A stretch of DNA of 64,000 nucleotides from contig CAZBPC010000008.1 of the NCBI GenBank assembly GCA_964493715.1, positions 1 to 64,000 on the forward strand, given 5' to 3'. Positions 3,051-47,059 of this stretch are shown piece by piece. The position numbers and the translations under genes are program-made. Origin of the DNA: an uncultured archaeon (GTDB lineage Archaea > Asgardarchaeota > Lokiarchaeia > Sigyniarchaeales > SOKP01). The notes below the pieces were generated by a model, which saw nothing but the letters and a program-made list of their open reading frames with translations, was not told the origin of the DNA and did not search any database. Within the stretch, counting starts at the first letter, position 1. Every line of letters begins with the position of its first letter.

Positions 3051-4085
3051 TCAAATTTGGTGAAAATAATATTTTCCATTTTTTTCCACTTTTTCCACTT
3101 TTCCTTGATATTCTAAATAGATTAAATGACCGAGCACTTCACTCAAAGCCATGTATGAATTTATCTCATCTAATTCCGTTCCAAAATGTATTTGAGAGAT
3201 TTTAAAAGGCGTGAGTGCTTTGTTGTGTAAAATAGCTAAAATTTCAGTAATACGTTTTTCGTGATGCTCTCTAATTTCTTGAATTCGTTTATGGGCGTCA
3301 TAAATTATGTCTTGGTGAGCGGGAAATATAACTTTTGGATTTAAGTTATCTATTTTTTCCAATGATTTTAAGTAATGGTCCAGAATGTTATCAAAATGAC
3401 GATCTTCAAATTCATTTTTCAGAGCTGAACTTATAACAAAGTTGCCAATATGAGGAGTTATCCTTGATAAGATATGATCTCCCGAAAATAAATACCCATT
3501 CTTCATATTAAAAATGCAGATATGACCAAAACTATGACCAGGTGTCCATATTATTTTTAAATCATTTAATATTATATCTCCATCATGAATCAATTGATCT
3601 GGTTCTTGATATTGCAAATATTTTGGCCATAAGGTAAGAAATTGAACCACTTGTTTGCCTTGCTCTTCTGAAATCCCATACATGATCATTAATTTAGCAA
3701 TCTTAGTGGCTTCTTCACGAAATTCATCTTCATTGTTTTTATCAGTTTCCCATTTAAAAATTCGATGAGTAATATCATGCATTAAAAGTTGTAAATCTGG
3801 ATTTTTTCTTTTAAATTTCTTGACAAGTCCAATATGATCGGTATGAATGTGGGTTATGATACAATAATCAACATCGGAAAAGCTATAACCTTCCTCGTTC
3901 AACCCGGAAAAAAATAGTTTACTCCAATTTCCCATATTCAAACCAGCATCAATAAGAACTGTCTTTCCATTCACTTCAAATAAATAATTACTCACAAATT
4001 TTACTCCAAAAGGAACGTCAATTTTAATCCGTACAACGTCATTTATTTTTGAGATTTCTGAAGTGAATTTCAACATATTAACCAC
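3051..4085 (-). CDS. Metallo-beta-lactamase fold hydrolase with C-terminal winged helix
   Basis: THIHTDH, TPGHSFGH, SGDH and PAH motifs. Confidence 0.9.
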   Translation of the reverse strand: MVNMLKFTSEISKINDVVRIKIDVPFGVKFVSNYLFEVNGKTVLIDAGLNMGNWSKLFFSGLNEEGYSFSDVDYCIITHIHTDHIGLVKKFKRKNPDLQLLMHDITHRIFKWETDKNNEDEFREEATKIAKLMIMYGISEEQGKQVVQFLTLWPKYLQYQEPDQLIHDGDIILNDLKIIWTPGHSFGHICIFNMKNGYLFSGDHILSRITPHIGNFVISSALKNEFEDRHFDNILDHYLKSLEKIDNLNPKVIFPAHQDIIYDAHKRIQEIREHHEKRITEILAILHNKALTPFKISQIHFGTELDEINSYMALSEVLGHLIYLEYQGKVEKVEKNGKYYFHQI

Positions 4086-4130: not shown

Positions 4131-4841
4131 TTAATCTTTAAGGCCATAATACATGAACCAAAAACTTGTCAGATAACCGATCCTTACGAAAATAATCATC
4201 AATCCTGGAGCTGTCAATCCCTCTAATAATCCAAAAACGCAGAAAAATATAGCACCCAACGAAAGTAGGAAGAACTTTTTCTTCAGTATTCCTGTTGATT
4301 GAAAAGCCTTGATCAGAAAACCAACTCCAAGTAAAAAGATTGTACTAAGTAGAAAGAAAGCCATAAGCATCCCTGCTATTGATAGTATAATTGTATTATA
4401 GTCAATTAAGAGCTCTCCTGGGATTGCGGGATAAACAAAGTTAAATGCTGCAAATGGGTCTATAAAGATGATAATATAAAAAAATATGCTTAATACTGTA
4501 AATATTGAGATTATAACCCATTTTAGTTTAGGTACCAACAATTTTGATCCTATATATATCGCAGTAATAATTGCTGGTGGTAACCAAATATAACTCAAGA
4601 TACCCACTAAACCATTAGTATTATCAATGTTAATATGTGAAATAGAAATAAGCACAGTCAAAAAATCTAAAAATACACCTAAAAACACAAGACCTGCAAA
4701 CAAATTGGCCAAACCTAAAGCAATTAGGATCTTAGCATTAGTTTTTCTAGATTTATAGATGAAGAAAAATCCAAAAAGGAATCCAAAAATCACGACTCCA
4801 GACGCCGTAAGACCATCTATCCAACCAATTAAAGTTAACAT
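4131..4841 (-). CDS. Multi-pass (about 7 TM) membrane protein, function unknown
   Basis: Seven hydrophobic segments in a long intact ORF. Confidence 0.75.
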   Translation of the reverse strand: MLTLIGWIDGLTASGVVIFGFLFGFFFIYKSRKTNAKILIALGLANLFAGLVFLGVFLDFLTVLISISHINIDNTNGLVGILSYIWLPPAIITAIYIGSKLLVPKLKWVIISIFTVLSIFFYIIIFIDPFAAFNFVYPAIPGELLIDYNTIILSIAGMLMAFFLLSTIFLLGVGFLIKAFQSTGILKKKFFLLSLGAIFFCVFGLLEGLTAPGLMIIFVRIGYLTSFWFMYYGLKD

Positions 4842-10575: not shown

Positions 10576-12600
10576 ATGAGTTGCCATGATCCAAAAAGGA
10601 ATATCTCTAATGAAAAGGGAGAAAATGTAATAAACATTGCTCTTGCTGGAAACCCAAACGTGGGAAAATCAGTCATTTTCAATCAACTAACGGGATTATC
10701 TCAAACTATAGGAAATTGGCCGGGAAAAACTGTTGAAAGAATGGAAGGACACTTAGAGTTTTTAGGATATCATTTCAACTTGGTTGATTTACCCGGAATT
10801 TACTCCCTATCAACTTACACTTTGGAAGAAATTGTCTCTCGAGAATACATTGTATCTGAGGAAGTAGATCTTATAATTAACGTAATTGATGCAACAAATT
10901 TGGAAAGGAACCTCTTCCTAACTTTTCAGTTATTAGAATTAAAAATTCCCATTATTTTAGCTTTTAATCAGATGGATATTTTACGAAAGAGAAAAAGAGA
11001 TTTAGATATAAATAAGTTGAAAGAGTTATTCAACTGTCCTGTAGTTCCTGTCGTTGCAGTTCATGGTGTTGGCGTTCATGAATTATTAGAAGAAGCAATT
11101 TTTTTAGTAACAAGTGGAAATAAATGTAACCTACCTCCTGATGTAACTTCCTTTGGAAGAGAAATAGAGGAAATAATAGATTTGTTGAATAAGGAACTAA
11201 TTTCAATATCAGGTTTTAAAGAAAAATCTCCTTATCCAGCAAGATTTCTTGCAATTAAATTATTGGAAAATGATGAAGAAATCTTAAAATTTGTAGAAAT
11301 TAATTTGGGGTTATCGATTGAAGGTATTAAATTAACTCAATTTAGAAAGGATTTAGAAGAATTACACGGGGAAGACATTAATACCATCATATCTTCTGAA
11401 ATTTATAATAATATTTTTCAGATAACTGAAAAAATCTTAATCGATCAACCTTTAGAAATAAAACGGAATAATTTTGCTGATATAATTGACCACTTGACCA
11501 CACATTCAATATGGGGGTATATTATTTTGATTTTAGTTCTCTTAGGGATATATCTCTTTACATTTACTATTGGAAACGTATTAGGAGGGTTCATTGATGA
11601 GATTTATTTAGTTTGGACGAATCAAATTTATCTAATATTTCAAGCGGATAATCTTCTAGTTCAAGTATTATGGAATGGAGGAATGGGAGGATTTATGGGT
11701 GCAATATCAGGAGTATTAGTATTTGTTATTCCATTTTTTTTTACAATCGAATTGTTACAAGATTCGGGTTACCTCCCTCGTGCAGCATTTATGATGGACA
11801 AGATAATGCATATATTGGGTGTACATGGAAAAACCGTGATTCCGATGGTTTTAGGATTTGGTTGTAATGTTCCCGCTTGTGCTGGTTGTAGGATAATGGA
11901 AACGGAACGTGAGAAGAAAATCTCTATTGCTTTAACTTCTCTTATCCCATGTGCTGCTGTAATGACTGTAGTAATGGGATTAGTTGGAAGATATGTGGGG
12001 TTAGGATGGGTATTAGTGCTATTTGGTATTAATCTTGCAACTATTTTGATTGTTGGACGGATCCTAAATAAAACAATGCCTGGAACTTGCACTGAATTGA
12101 TAATGGAAATGCATGCATATAGGACTCCAAACTATAAAGTTATCCTCAAGCAAACTTGGATCCGTTCCAAAGAATTCATCTTTAGAGCTCTTCCAATAAT
12201 TATTGTCTTTGGAATAGTTTTGGAAATCTTGTTCCTTTTTAAAATCTTGGAACCAATAAACTTAATTTTATCTCCAATTACTTCTATTTGGCTTGGTTTG
12301 CCAGTTGCAACTGGTGTTTTTCTTATTTACGGAATTTTGAGGAAAGAATTGACTTTAGTTTTATTAGGAGTATTTGCTGAAAATGTAGGATTGACAATTA
12401 CTCAACTACTCACTCCGTTTCAGATGATAACATTCAGTTTAGTAACAATGCTTTATATTCCTTGTTTCGCAACAATTATCATAATCGCTAAGCAAACTAA
12501 TTGGAAATACGCGATTCAAATTTCATTTTTAGAAATTGGTCTAGCACTAACAATTGGAGGAATTATTAATTTTATTTTTATCTTGCTTGGTGCTTCTTAA
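10576..12600 (+). CDS. feoB: Ferrous iron transport protein B
   Basis: GNPNVGKS, GNWPGKTVE, DLPGIYSL, NQMD, DSGYLPRAAF and GFGCNVP motifs. Confidence 0.97.
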   Translation: MSCHDPKRNISNEKGENVINIALAGNPNVGKSVIFNQLTGLSQTIGNWPGKTVERMEGHLEFLGYHFNLVDLPGIYSLSTYTLEEIVSREYIVSEEVDLIINVIDATNLERNLFLTFQLLELKIPIILAFNQMDILRKRKRDLDINKLKELFNCPVVPVVAVHGVGVHELLEEAIFLVTSGNKCNLPPDVTSFGREIEEIIDLLNKELISISGFKEKSPYPARFLAIKLLENDEEILKFVEINLGLSIEGIKLTQFRKDLEELHGEDINTIISSEIYNNIFQITEKILIDQPLEIKRNNFADIIDHLTTHSIWGYIILILVLLGIYLFTFTIGNVLGGFIDEIYLVWTNQIYLIFQADNLLVQVLWNGGMGGFMGAISGVLVFVIPFFFTIELLQDSGYLPRAAFMMDKIMHILGVHGKTVIPMVLGFGCNVPACAGCRIMETEREKKISIALTSLIPCAAVMTVVMGLVGRYVGLGWVLVLFGINLATILIVGRILNKTMPGTCTELIMEMHAYRTPNYKVILKQTWIRSKEFIFRALPIIIVFGIVLEILFLFKILEPINLILSPITSIWLGLPVATGVFLIYGILRKELTLVLLGVFAENVGLTITQLLTPFQMITFSLVTMLYIPCFATIIIIAKQTNWKYAIQISFLEIGLALTIGGIINFIFILLGAS

Positions 12601-15888: not shown

Positions 15889-15943
15889 TTGTATTTAGTT
15901 AAAATAAGAGAATAACTGATATATCTTGTCAGTTTTTCTCATT

Positions 15944-44496: not shown

Positions 44497-44774
44497 TACT
44501 TTTCTTTTTATTTTAATTTTTAATGTATTATTAAATCGTTTTAAAATCTCGACAAAAAATAAGGTCATCTTGATCGTTTTCTAACATAAATAAATCCAAA
44601 TGATCAATTTGAATATTACCCTTTCAAAAAACCAATTTAAATGATTACTCAATTCGAAAAATCTTGTTGGGAATGTTTATATTTTTTTCAATAATTCCCT
44701 TATTATTAAAAATAATTTAACATCAAAAGTGATTTAATATTTCATTTGAAGATATTAGCAAAAAACTTGCTAAA

Positions 44775-45961
44775 TTGATGAAAGATACAGAAGAAATTGA
44801 GCTTAAAGATGTCGATTTGTTTGCTGAATACCTTGAGTTTCAAATGTTACCCCAGATGGTAGTCTCTGCCGCTCAAGCTACGTTACCAGGCATCGGAAAG
44901 GCTGAATGGAAAGATGTGAAGTTTAAACTTGACTTGAATTTTCCGGGTAAAATTGAAACTATTGAATTTGTTCGCTCTAAAGGCAAGAAAGTTACTATTG
45001 GAGGTGAAGTTGTGCCTCCTTTCTATAATTTTCTCGGACTTGATAAACGTAATCCCAATCCTCCACTTGTTACGTATGACGTATTCGATATGGGTTCTAA
45101 AATGATGCTTCCAAAACCCATTAAGCAAGAGTATGGAGAAGTATTACAACATCCTGCTGAATGGGCTAAATTCGCAGTTGATAAATTCGGTGCTCAATGC
45201 ATTACTTTTCACTCTCTTGAAATTGATCCTGCCATGGGTGATGCACCAGTAAGTCAATCCGTGAAATACTTAGAAGATATTTTACAAGCTGTAGATGTAC
45301 CCGTCATTATTGGATGTTCGGGTAATAAAAAGAAAGATAAAGAATTATTCGAAGCCACAGCTCCGATAACAGAAAGTGAAGTATTGATGTTATCTGCAGC
45401 AGATAAAGCCACCTGGGAGGATGTAATCCCCCTAGCAGTTAAATATGACCATAATTGCTTGTTATGGACGAGTTTGGACCTCAACAATCAAATTAAGATG
45501 AATAAAGATGCCCTTGAACTAGGACTCCCACGTAATAGGATTGTAATGGATCCTACCTGCGCAACAGCGTAATTTAAATCTCTTAAATTGCTGCGATTTT
45601 AGGCTACGGGATGGAGTATAGTTTTAGCATCTACCAAAGAATGCGAGTTGCTGGTCTTTTAGGTGAGGAAGATTTAGCTTACCCAATTAGTGGGGGAACA
45701 ACTAATGCTTGGGGAGCTCGTGAAGCATGGATGAGTGAAAAGAAAGTTCCTGAATGGGGTTTACGACAATATAGAGGTCCAATTTGGGAGATTATTAATG
45801 CTCTTTCATTAAGCCTGGTGGGTTTAGATTTAGCCATGATGTTCCATCCAGTTTCAGCTAAATATGTGAAAGAAATCACGAGTCAATTTTTTGCCGAAAT
45901 ACCTAAAGTAATGGACAATTTGGGATATTACGACTGGGTTTCTGCTCGTTTGAAAAAATAA
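44775..45961 (+). CDS. cdhD: CODH/acetyl-CoA synthase delta subunit (corrinoid Fe-S protein small subunit); join(44775..45565,45598..45961), about 384 aa after splicing
   Basis: VTIGGE, YDVFD, PAEWAK, VDVPVIIGCSG, IVMDPT in exon 1; LGYGMEYS, NAWGAREAW, RGPIWE, MFHP in exon 2. Removing 32 nt restores the frame. Confidence 0.9.
45566..45597 (+). other. Candidate bulge-helix-bulge (tRNA-endonuclease-type) intron in a protein-coding gene
   Basis: AGCGTAATTTAAATCTCTTAAATTGCTGCGAT. The 4-bp helix CGCA/TGCG is flanked by 3-nt bulges ACA and ATT; internal hairpin; contains an in-frame TAA. Confidence 0.85.
45917..45961 (+). repeat. 45-bp direct repeat, copy 1 (3' end of cdhD)
   Basis: Matches 47183-47227 at 42 of 45 positions. 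Confidence 0.92.
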
Positions 45962-46087
45962 TTTTTTTTCCAATTTTATTATATTATTAATTTAATCTTC
46001 TATTTTTATACCATTTATTCTACGTCATCTCTATGGTAAATTCATCCTATTAAAGCTATCATTTCTAAGATAATTTTTTCTGGATCA

Positions 46088-47059
46088 TCAGGACATAACA
46101 TTGGAATCCGGTCCTGAGTGAGAAAATGATTTTAAGGTTTCAAGTAATTGTCGTCCTTGTTCTCCTTCTTTCAATCTTATTTCGACCTTACAGGGGCATT
46201 TTTTTTTCCTTGCAAATAGTTCATCCGAATTCACTTTATAGTTAATCTTTTTGCCATCTCTTGATCCCCTTAAGTTTAACAAGTCTATTATAGGAAATGG
46301 ATAACCATAGGAATCTTCTGAGCATGAGCTATAGATATTTCTTGCTTTTTTTATGCTCACATTTGGCCCAATATCTAATAAAATTCTCCCAACAGATTCA
46401 TAAGGTATAATTTTTAACTTACCATGAGCGATGATTCTATGGGTGGTAACCAAAATGTATCCCGATCGTACCTTAAGAGAATAATTTTTAGGAATTTCTT
46501 GCATAATAGTTGCATCAAAATAATATATAATCTTCTCTCCGTTATTGAAACAATACTTTTCGAGGATATATGTATCCATCATCTTGATTCCTTCATTACC
46601 AAAAATCTTTATCAAATTATTTCGTAATTCGGAATAAAGGGCTATTTTAAAAAACTTGGGATTCAATTGAAAAACTTCTCCAACTATATCAAAAAATTCA
46701 TTATCAGAAAGAGAAGAATTGATTTTTAGATTGTATAATTGTTTGAGGATAACTTTTTTTGATGGTTTTGCTCGGCTTAGCTCATTTTTAATCATATCTA
46801 TTATCTGATTTTCATCCATTTTGCTAAGTGTATCAGTCCTATACTTCGGGAAACTAGGACTCTTTCGATATCTATTGAATAAGCACAAACCAATTACACC
46901 AATAAAAACTGAAGAAGGAATCATGACTCTTATTATAGGACTTCTAATGAAATCATAAGGATCCATAGATATTTTCGTGAAACCATAAACAATAATCGCA
47001 ATTGCTATAAAGAATAATATGGCCCCAATTTTAGCCTGTATTTTCAAACTATAATTCAC
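46088..47059 (-). CDS. Hypothetical protein with two N-terminal TM helices and a possible PH-like C-terminal domain
   Basis: 323-aa ORF; the EKII...GYILVTTHRII pattern recalls PH/GRAM strands. Lies between the direct repeats. Confidence 0.65.
   Translation of the reverse strand: MNYSLKIQAKIGAILFFIAIAIIVYGFTKISMDPYDFIRSPIIRVMIPSSVFIGVIGLCLFNRYRKSPSFPKYRTDTLSKMDENQIIDMIKNELSRAKPSKKVILKQLYNLKINSSLSDNEFFDIVGEVFQLNPKFFKIALYSELRNNLIKIFGNEGIKMMDTYILEKYCFNNGEKIIYYFDATIMQEIPKNYSLKVRSGYILVTTHRIIAHGKLKIIPYESVGRILLDIGPNVSIKKARNIYSSCSEDSYGYPFPIIDLLNLRGSRDGKKINYKVNSDELFARKKKCPCKVEIRLKEGEQGRQLLETLKSFSHSGPDSNVMS

Follow-up and report, generated by a model that had tools for sequence, protein, structure and literature searches.

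The window analyzed here is a stretch of 64,000 nucleotides (nt) from a contig of an uncultured Asgard archaeon, and its feature of interest is the gene cdhD (44775 to 45961, forward strand), which is split by an insert of 32 nt at 45566 to 45597. The upstream sequence (GAT CCT ACC TGC GCA ACA GCG TAA, 45549 to 45572) encodes ...DPTCAT followed by a single alanine and a TAA stop codon at 45570 to 45572, and the downstream frame (TAA ATT GCT GCG ATT TTA GGC TAC GGG ATG, from 45584) is closed on its upstream side by the TAA at 45584 to 45586. The open reading frames (ORFs) listed for the forward strand are consequently two pieces, 44775 to 45572 (265 amino acids [aa] in length) and 45611 to 45961 (116 aa). 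The Pfam CdhD profile (PF03599) matches residues 69 to 264 of the first piece over profile positions 7 to 180, and residues 1 to 45 of the frame read from 45599 over profile positions 181 to 227. The two matches abut at 180/181 with nothing missing, and 32 nt (or 32 + 3n) are therefore surplus in cdhD. A single copy of the gene was found in the genome. An original prediction, made from the letters of the window, had proposed that a gene of the cdhD family is broken at DPTCAT/LGYG by 32 nt, that both frames are closed, and that the host is probably an Asgard archaeon; all of these proposals proved correct, coordinates included. Relatives by protein are named Promethearchaeota (Loki-type Asgard) or Promethearchaeia, with some other Asgard labels. 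The comparisons below indicate that the 32 nt are very probably a bulge-helix-bulge (BHB) intron in the cdhD mRNA. The genome that contains the window is referred to as G000, the other genomes compared as G001, G003, G016, and so on, and contigs of G000 by C numbers.

Merging of identical coding sequences reduced 128 parsed cdhD loci to 91 distinct alleles, of which 84 read through ...DPTCAT/LGYG... without interruption and seven carry an insert, in every case at exactly this one codon. The insert has a length of 32 nt in two alleles (G000 and G001) and of 36 nt in five (G016, G056, and three named metagenome-assembled genomes). The length of the 36-nt form is divisible by three, yet this form contains an in-frame TAA; removal is therefore needed even where the frame is kept, and a shift of frame is not the issue. 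A metagenome scan, anchored on the 5' side of the insert only, returned 29 stretches, comprising 10 insert-bearing cdhD sequences (eight of 36 nt and two of 32 nt) and 19 chance matches, and the cdhD contigs among them contribute five new junction sequences. The insert, whose absence from raw DNA reads had been put forward as a test of the prediction, is retained in other assemblies and recurs across independent ones. In DNA run X1, possibly the source sample, a contig of 5,444 nt spans it with two differences and no gap. Misassembly does not account for the insert in cdhD. The population is represented in DNA runs X1 to X17 and occurs in salt-marsh and sediment samples. In G023 and in G019, a contig breaks off within a few bases of the cdhD insert site. 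A second fragment of G019 crosses the site without an insert, a pattern expected from a mixture of intron-bearing and intronless strains.

The tRNA splicing endonuclease EndA cuts each strand of its substrate inside the bulge, two nucleotides to the 3' side of the central helix. In the available text of PMC4090602 and PMC5829648, the BHB motif is defined by a central helix of 4 bp and two 3-nt bulges on opposite strands. The cdhD transcript can form such a motif around the break, with the central helix CGCA/UGCG and the bulges ACA and AUU. The flanking helices h (exon with exon) and h' (intron with intron) are also present, and 100% of their cells are paired in the 12 distinct sequences compared. 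The overall layout is a 4-bp outer helix, the 4-bp central helix, and a 3-bp inner helix plus a hairpin of 6 to 7 bp, in which AAUUUAA (45571 to 45577) and UUAAAUU (45583 to 45589) are 100% complementary over 7 nt around a 5-nt loop (Table 1). The CGCA/UGCG and AAUUUAA/UUAAAUU helices had been predicted in this form; the outer helix, predicted as CCUG/U-AGG, is clean only with a 4-nt bulge or a skipped U. Application of the cleavage rule removes 45566 to 45597, as anticipated, and restores both the frame, open over 398 aa, and the DPT-x3-LGYG spacing that matches 84 of the 91 alleles. Motifs were scored as twice the number of central-helix pairs plus up to four inner and up to four outer pairs. 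The cdhD motif scores 15 (four central, three inner, and four outer pairs), a value attained by approximately 1e-4 of 60,000 random genomic sites with the same spacing. Two registers of excision reproduce the ortholog peptide at cdhD, and one of these has the BHB of score 15.

Table 1. Predicted elements of the interrupted cdhD gene and of its transcript, in coordinates of the window
Feature	Position	Strand	Remarks
cdhD exon 1	44775..45565	+	Earliest start codon in the frame, TTG at 44775; ends in AC of a Thr codon; ORF list; Pfam positions 7-180
Approximate stretch matching the mosaic (co-conversion) tract of other alleles	45525..45637	+	Switch of informative sites
Outer (exon) helix h, 5' strand CCUG	45556..45559	+	Pairs with 45600-45603 in the minimum free energy fold; paired in 12/12 sequences
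Central 4-bp helix H, 5' strand CGCA (exon)	45560..45563	+	Pairs with 45592-45595; 47/48 cells paired; no covariation
5' bulge ACA	45564..45566	+	Predicted cut 45565/45566; invariant in 12/12 sequences
32-nt intron (predicted)	45566..45597	+	Removal joins Pfam positions 180/181 and gives a 398-aa open frame
Intron-internal structure	45567..45591	+	Inner helix h' 45567-69/45589-91 in one register; hairpin 45571-77/45583-89, loop 45578-82
Central helix H, 3' strand UGCG (intron)	45592..45595	+	Variant UACG (G056 and two metagenome contigs): C.A mismatch
3' bulge AUU (AUUU with a cleanly paired outer helix)	45596..45599	+	Predicted cut 45597/45598
cdhD exon 2	45598..45961	+	First base completes the Thr codon, then LGYGMEYS...; stop codon 45959-45961; Pfam positions 181-227
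Outer helix h, 3' strand UAGG (exon 2)	45600..45603	+	A to G, the sole change, leaves a U.G pair

The predicted structure is conserved among the insert-bearing sequences. Across the 12 sequences, 99.5% of 195 cells pair, compared with 21 to 45% in controls with slid partners, and five pairs show compensatory changes on both sides, a number reached by none of 500 shuffles. A version restricted to seven sequences gave 99.1% of cells paired and three pairs changed on both sides. For five of the 12 rows, the pattern of the metagenome search had preset the 5' strand of both the central and the outer helix. All five compensatory pairs belong to intron-internal helices, and covariation alone therefore demonstrates a conserved hairpin and not the BHB core. 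The comparison of orthologs suggested in the original prediction was thus informative on presence and absence, with the insert in seven of 91 alleles, and on covariation within the intron-internal helices, and it gave none in the central and outer helices. The letters of the 3' bulge vary (AUU, AUA, AAA, and AGA) while the flanking helices persist.

Support for the BHB core comes from the exons, in helix bases that are fixed only in insert-bearing alleles. After prior removal of seven outgroup or long-branch rows from the codon analyses, the exon codons that build the helices, ACC-TGC-GCA...TTR, were present in all seven intron alleles and in 7, 21, 21, and 30 of 67 intronless alleles. Unpaired third positions beside the helix codons are variable in intron-bearing and intronless alleles alike. 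A search of positions 44500 to 46500 against Rfam gave no match at E values up to 1, and the insert is not a group I, group II, or other curated family member. No direct repeat of the kind that would mark a transposon-like remnant (miniature inverted-repeat element or insertion sequence) was found bracketing 45566 to 45597.

Both exons are under strong purifying selection, and the neutral evolution that had been named as a finding adverse to the prediction was not seen. Spliced in silico, six of the seven insert alleles give open frames of 398 to 409 aa, like those of intronless alleles, and the seventh ends at a contig edge; no further stop codon or frameshift occurs in the seven within the available sequence. 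Ratios of nonsynonymous to synonymous divergence (dN/dS) among intron-bearers, where dS is finite, are 0.02 to 0.07 for exon 1 and 0.04 to 0.06 for exon 2, and the medians for intronless pairs are 0.042 and 0.048, respectively. In most pairs of intron-bearers, dS exceeds 1.3 or is saturated, which excludes that these alleles are young duplicates of a single sequence. G000 and G001, which share the 32-nt form, differ in exon 2 with a dN of 0.029 and a dS of 0.52 (ratio, 0.055).

Similar inserts interrupt other protein genes of the same genome. They were sought by tblastn searches against G000 with ORFs of ≥90 aa from 2.54 of 3.34 Mb (76%) of the closed relative G057, a scan that detects only inserts missing from G057 and gives an incomplete catalogue, cdhD and rtcB being in the remaining part. 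Nine candidate places were returned and six were rejected: those on C110, C7, C74, and C96 are differences of 204 to 246 nt with low identity between domains, and those on C21 and C83 look like adjacent genes whose spacing differs in G057 or that have been fused there. Three short inserts were left, in a thiolase-like gene, the gene for ribosomal protein uS8, and an aldolase-like gene, the family names being those of the intact G057 orthologs. The reverse scan, for inserts in G057, gave two places, neither of them credible.

The rtcB gene (C2, minus strand, approximately 12134 to 12164) has an insert of 29 nt between ...GGVGY and DINCG..., and its Pfam RtcB match consists of two adjacent pieces (profile positions 1 to 47 and 48 to 426). 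The best-scoring BHB at this place, a canonical one with the central helix UUGG/CCAA, bulges AUA and AGA, an inner helix of 6 bp, and an outer helix of 2 bp, scores 14 in a register that restores GGVGY/DINCG. This insert is present in two of 30 loci of the genus (G000 and G001, which differ at a single base of the 3' bulge) and absent from 28. The thiolase-like gene (C120, forward strand, approximately 4198 to 4228) contains 31 nt with a canonical hBHBh' arrangement (UGCU-UUAC-AAA ... GUAA-UUU-AGCA; score, 13). Only one register reproduces its ortholog; it is the register of the BHB, and an Ile codon is built across the junction. The insert was seen in G000 only, the contig of G001 stopping before the site, and 30 genomes match a 321-nt query over 290 nt, which indicates that they lack it. 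An 87-nt portion of the thiolase-like gene has a second copy with 98% identity at C134 (4605 to 4691), possibly a strain variant or a contig-end duplicate.

The uS8 gene of G000, a single locus (C26, forward strand, approximately 4049 to 4077), carries 29 nt with three of four central pairs (GGCG-AAA ... CGCA-AGU; score, 12). Among 30 loci of the genus, this insert is common to G000, G023, and G004, and 26 loci are intronless, including that of G001. Its inner helix has compensatory changes across the three genomes, and only they have GGC as the Gly codon contributing to the helix. In G023, only one register is possible. The EndA cut position given above agrees with the two cases that have a single possible register. 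In G003 (L310), uS8 is interrupted 6 nt farther upstream by another insert of 29 nt, which has a 4-bp helix of its own (GCCU/GGGU), ACA and AAA as bulges, and an inner helix that is long; it is an independent second hit on uS8. For the five independent introns, the probability of a BHB arising by chance in the protein-restoring register ranges from 1e-4 to 2e-2 per case.

The distribution of the cdhD insert is patchy. On a quick maximum-likelihood tree (IQ-TREE) of 81 CdhD rows, the seven intron-bearers require six state changes, at least four of them forced by well-supported branches, and the intron label is not clustered, since 71 of 500 shuffles gave a value as low. G016 and the intronless G005 share 94.6% DNA identity outside the junction region and 72% within 12 codons on either side of the insert; within that region, G016 is 92% identical to another intron-bearer, with which it shares 75.7% identity elsewhere. 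The ABR03 and G056 alleles show the same junction pattern. Around the insert, the affinity of informative sites changes abruptly near -41 and again at +24 to +39 nt. Inside -41 to +39, five alleles have 15 to 20 sites that match other intron-bearers and one to three that match the nearest relative, and outside this tract the proportions are reversed (Fisher P of 3e-15 to 1e-5 for the five alleles). For G000 itself, with a distant nearest intronless relative, the signal is weak (nine versus four sites; P = 0.046). The uS8 flanks of G000 are likewise mosaic in comparison with G001, G022, and G006. Mosaic sites are far more numerous than sites involved in pairing of the motif, and the pattern is therefore read as recombination carrying the intron with short exon flanks rather than as convergent selection. 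Patchy presence and short mosaic flanks suggest lateral spread of the inserts, and the cdhD intron is apparently polymorphic and laterally transferred.

In the proposed mechanism, the exon sequence CCUG-CGCA of the transcript would pair with UGCG of the intron and UAGG of the second exon, so that ACA on one strand of the 4-bp helix and AUU(U) on the other would bulge out above the intron hairpin. EndA, probably as a two-subunit alpha-beta enzyme, would cut within both bulges according to the rule given above, and RtcB would join the exons to yield full-length CdhD (...DPTCAT/LGYG...). An unspliced message would give the 265-aa fragment only, so that the amount of CdhD would depend on splicing. 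The cdhD intron would belong to a small set of 29- to 36-nt introns (cdhD, rtcB, uS8, and thiolase-like) in a Promethearchaeota genus; these may be present or absent between close relatives and may move between alleles by recombination that includes tens of exon nucleotides on each side. Cleavage, ligation, a regulatory role, and the mode of transfer are what we infer. Whether these introns form a mobile family of BHB mini-introns, 29 to 36 nt long and devoid of an ORF, that is actively invading and leaving protein genes of a Loki-type Asgard genus, even rtcB, is evenly balanced.

The genome encodes candidates for this machinery. Two genes with the EndA domain (PF01974) are located on contigs C5 and C58 (102 and 68 bits; 207 and 205 aa). 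One paralogue shows Tyr...His-Ser...Lys, which we take to be the catalytic residues, and the other is without the His; the two would fit as an alpha-beta pair. The available text of PMC5829648 assigns Asgard archaea an (alpha-beta)2 EndA with an L1 loop, of the broad-specificity type, and links pre-mRNA splicing to hetero-oligomeric EndA. RtcB is also encoded (484 bits), in the gene split by its own 29-nt insert. ARAGORN found 27 tRNA genes in this genome, which is scored as 100% complete; 12 have introns of 11 to 39 nt, and these score 7 to 16 on the same BHB scale, with the register optimized over ±4 nt. Many tRNA genes were probably missed by ARAGORN owing to multiple or noncanonical introns, and the low count fits the heavily interrupted Asgard tRNA genes described in the accessible parts of PMC11291895 and a 2026 preprint (bioRxiv 10.64898/2026.10.13.758758).

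Several observations weigh against a BHB intron in cdhD. The 3' bulge is irregular, being either 4 nt long (45596 to 45599) or 3 nt with one U skipped for clean pairing of CCUG with UAGG; in the tRNA-Thr intron on C4 of the same genome, the outer helix is likewise shifted by one base. Taken singly, the cdhD sequence folds with a minimum free energy of -15.1 kcal/mol and a z score of -1.45, and 18 of 200 shuffles fold equally well; what rises above chance is that the motif occupies the one position at which the frame is restored. The RNAalifold consensus favors a rival helix, CAGCU/AGCUG, an extension of the inner helix that takes up the 5' bulge and half of the central helix. Covariation is lacking in the central and outer helices, which are invariant except for one change of U-A to U-G and a C.A variant, and this natural variant, UACG, introduces a mismatch into the central helix. 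The aldolase-like (DeoC/LacD-type) gene (C65, forward strand, approximately 15893 to 15924) has a 32-nt hairpin insert between ...GAVGVD and MGRNIFQ... with no BHB in its three usable registers (score of 9, not significant); judged by match length only, G051, G042, G021, and G018 carry it too. Another process may therefore be involved as well. Of three metatranscriptome runs, which contain small shares of the window, X18 and X19 gave nothing, and X20 gave one contig (44955 to 45190, with 16 differences) far from the junction. The presumed ligase gene, rtcB, is itself interrupted, which creates a bootstrap problem.

Scans for the motif itself are a further point on this side. A genome-wide loose scan for a BHB with fusion of frames gave 5,614 real and 5,131 decoy hits, and a strict scan gave 143 and 138, respectively. 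Real hits are no commoner than decoys, and the motif alone therefore predicts nothing. The cdhD motif passes the strict scan; rtcB is not among the strict-scan matches listed, its 2-bp outer helix being below the 3-bp rule of the scan. With decoys equally frequent, motif scanning was rejected as a source of an intron catalogue in this AT-rich genome. The original prediction had recommended scanning the other split genes for BHB motifs; of those compared here, rtcB, uS8, and the thiolase-like gene have the motif, and the aldolase-like gene does not.

Weighed together, the sequence comparisons leave the BHB intron as a well-supported reading of the cdhD insert and the best-supported explanation of it. 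It is very unlikely that cdhD is instead a split gene, the 265-aa piece and the 116-aa piece starting at ATG 45611 being translated apart and assembling into a working CdhD without splicing. Such an arrangement would draw on the ATG four codons into exon 2, would equally lead one to expect purifying selection on both pieces, and would accord with the lack of spliced cdhD RNA in the runs examined, whose one contig ends at 45190. The LGYG codons, however, lie upstream of this ATG and change only synonymously in the 12 sequences; they are therefore translated, which a separately started second polypeptide does not account for, the frame being closed by the TAA at 45584 to 45586 with no ATG, GTG, or TTG between. 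Separate translation also leaves the conserved BHB core, the compensatory changes, and the frozen pairing sites of the exons unexplained, and the breaks in rtcB, uS8, and the thiolase-like gene fall within tightly conserved motifs.

A similarly small probability attaches to excision of the insert from RNA by another nuclease and ligase, or by a self-processing activity of unknown kind that recognizes the hairpin. The aldolase-like insert, a conserved 32-nt hairpin without a usable BHB, is in keeping with such a system, and the central helix without covariation and the interruption of rtcB itself also agree with it. It is opposed by the five independent introns in which a helix of four (or three of four) pairs and bulges stand precisely in the protein-restoring register, and by the lack of an Rfam match at E values up to 1 in the region searched. 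Known self-splicing introns are far larger than 29 to 36 nt, which counts against self-processing.

Translational recoding, in which ribosomes would hop over the 32 nt, is extremely unlikely. In the 50-nt gap of phage T4 gene 60, a stop codon follows the take-off site, a hairpin lies in the gap, and the take-off and landing codons match. The cdhD insert resembles this in its stop two codons past the break and its hairpin, but ACA does not match AUU, AUA, AAA, or AGA, no consistent codon pair exists at the rtcB, uS8, and thiolase-like junctions, and the thiolase-like Ile codon has to be pieced together from bases that flank the gap, which hopping cannot do. That cdhD is a decaying pseudogene inactivated by a small insertion, as standard annotation would say and as its location on a contig other than that of cdhC might hint, has a negligible probability given the low dN/dS of both exons at high or saturated dS, the seven alleles free of other lesions within the available sequence, the conservation of the insert with compensatory changes, and the same kind of insert in the essential genes rtcB and uS8, the latter a single locus.

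A BHB intron in cdhD has few counterparts. Watanabe (2002) and Yoshinari (2006) are the names reportedly attached to the cbf5 mRNA intron of the Crenarchaeota. According to the available text of PMC7714728, the only RNA apart from tRNA and rRNA known to contain BHB introns was the mRNA of crenarchaeal cbf5, to which a case in a 5' untranslated region (UTR) of Haloferax was added in 2020. Gain and loss of the cbf5 intron, with secondary loss possibly via reverse-transcribed spliced mRNA, are described in the accessible part of PMC2738675 (Yokobori 2009). Crenarchaeal cbf5 had also been cited as the precedent in the original prediction, in agreement with what could be consulted of both sources. 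Like the cbf5 intron, whose excision by the tRNA splicing endonuclease is tied to hetero-oligomeric EndA, the cdhD intron is short, lies in coding sequence, has a BHB-type motif, and is patchy across lineages. It differs in its Asgard host, in the genes affected (cdhD, rtcB, uS8, and thiolase-like), in the presence of several such introns per genome, and in the divergence in intron content between near-identical alleles (G016 and G005, 94.6%), with mosaic tracts that point to lateral gain. Splicing of cbf5 has been shown experimentally, whereas that of cdhD is predicted from sequence. The cdhD intron would work like the cbf5 intron but outside that lineage, since both gene and host differ. It is very likely an addition, with a new lineage and new genes, to a rare class of archaeal mRNA BHB introns, represented in coding sequence previously only by crenarchaeal cbf5.

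Other systems share single aspects. The BHB intron in the 5' UTR of Haloferax volcanii HVO_1309 is also in an mRNA, is an EndA substrate, and affects gene expression through its removal (PMC7714728, available text); unlike that of cdhD, it lies in an untranslated leader with the frame intact, and its host is a euryarchaeon with a homodimeric enzyme. Noncanonical tRNA introns of Asgard archaea and Thermoproteales resemble the cdhD intron in motif, size range, presumed enzyme, and repeated gains, as far as the accessible parts of PMC11291895 and the 2026 preprint go, and differ in that the host RNA of cdhD is a message whose frame is restored to the nucleotide. The same parts of the preprint describe many independent gains of tRNA introns and treat their route of arrival as the central open problem. 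Splicing of XBP1 and HAC1 by IRE1 and RtcB similarly removes a short mRNA intron without a spliceosome, by an endonuclease and a tRNA ligase, and changes the frame (PMC4090602, available text); the nuclease is IRE1 and not EndA/TSEN, the motif consists of paired stem-loops, and the reaction is a stress switch in one mRNA. No BHB intron in an Asgard protein gene was found in the literature searched, subscription journals and supplements being outside the search, and PMC11291895 and the 2026 preprint, in their accessible parts, deal with tRNA introns only.

Confirmed splicing would mean that introns are both tolerated and processed by Asgard archaea, to which eukaryotes are more closely related than to any other known organisms, and this in messages that serve central metabolism (cdhD), translation (uS8), and RNA repair (rtcB). 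Protein-gene introns would then be gained and lost over short evolutionary times, and the arrival of introns and the way cells cope with them would become testable questions. Should the introns indeed be mobile, this Asgard lineage would be a living example of the gain of message introns under protein-only splicing. The rtcB case would, if true, be a self-referential circuit in which the message of the ligase needs ligation and RtcB synthesis depends on RtcB. Annotation pipelines would call such genes pseudogenes or split genes, and metabolic capacity and genome completeness would be understated.

The neighbors of cdhD in G000 are dapA, dapB, lysA, and dapF, and cdhC is on a different contig. 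A stand-alone copy of the last ~44 codons of the aldolase-like gene, starting at the same D/MGRNIFQ junction and preceded by unrelated AT-rich sequence, lies at C84 (3628 to 3744, forward strand). Positions 45588 to 45603, a 16-nt segment that includes the 3' end of the predicted intron and the start of exon 2, resemble positions 45648 to 45663, 60 nt downstream, with 81% identity, possibly by chance.

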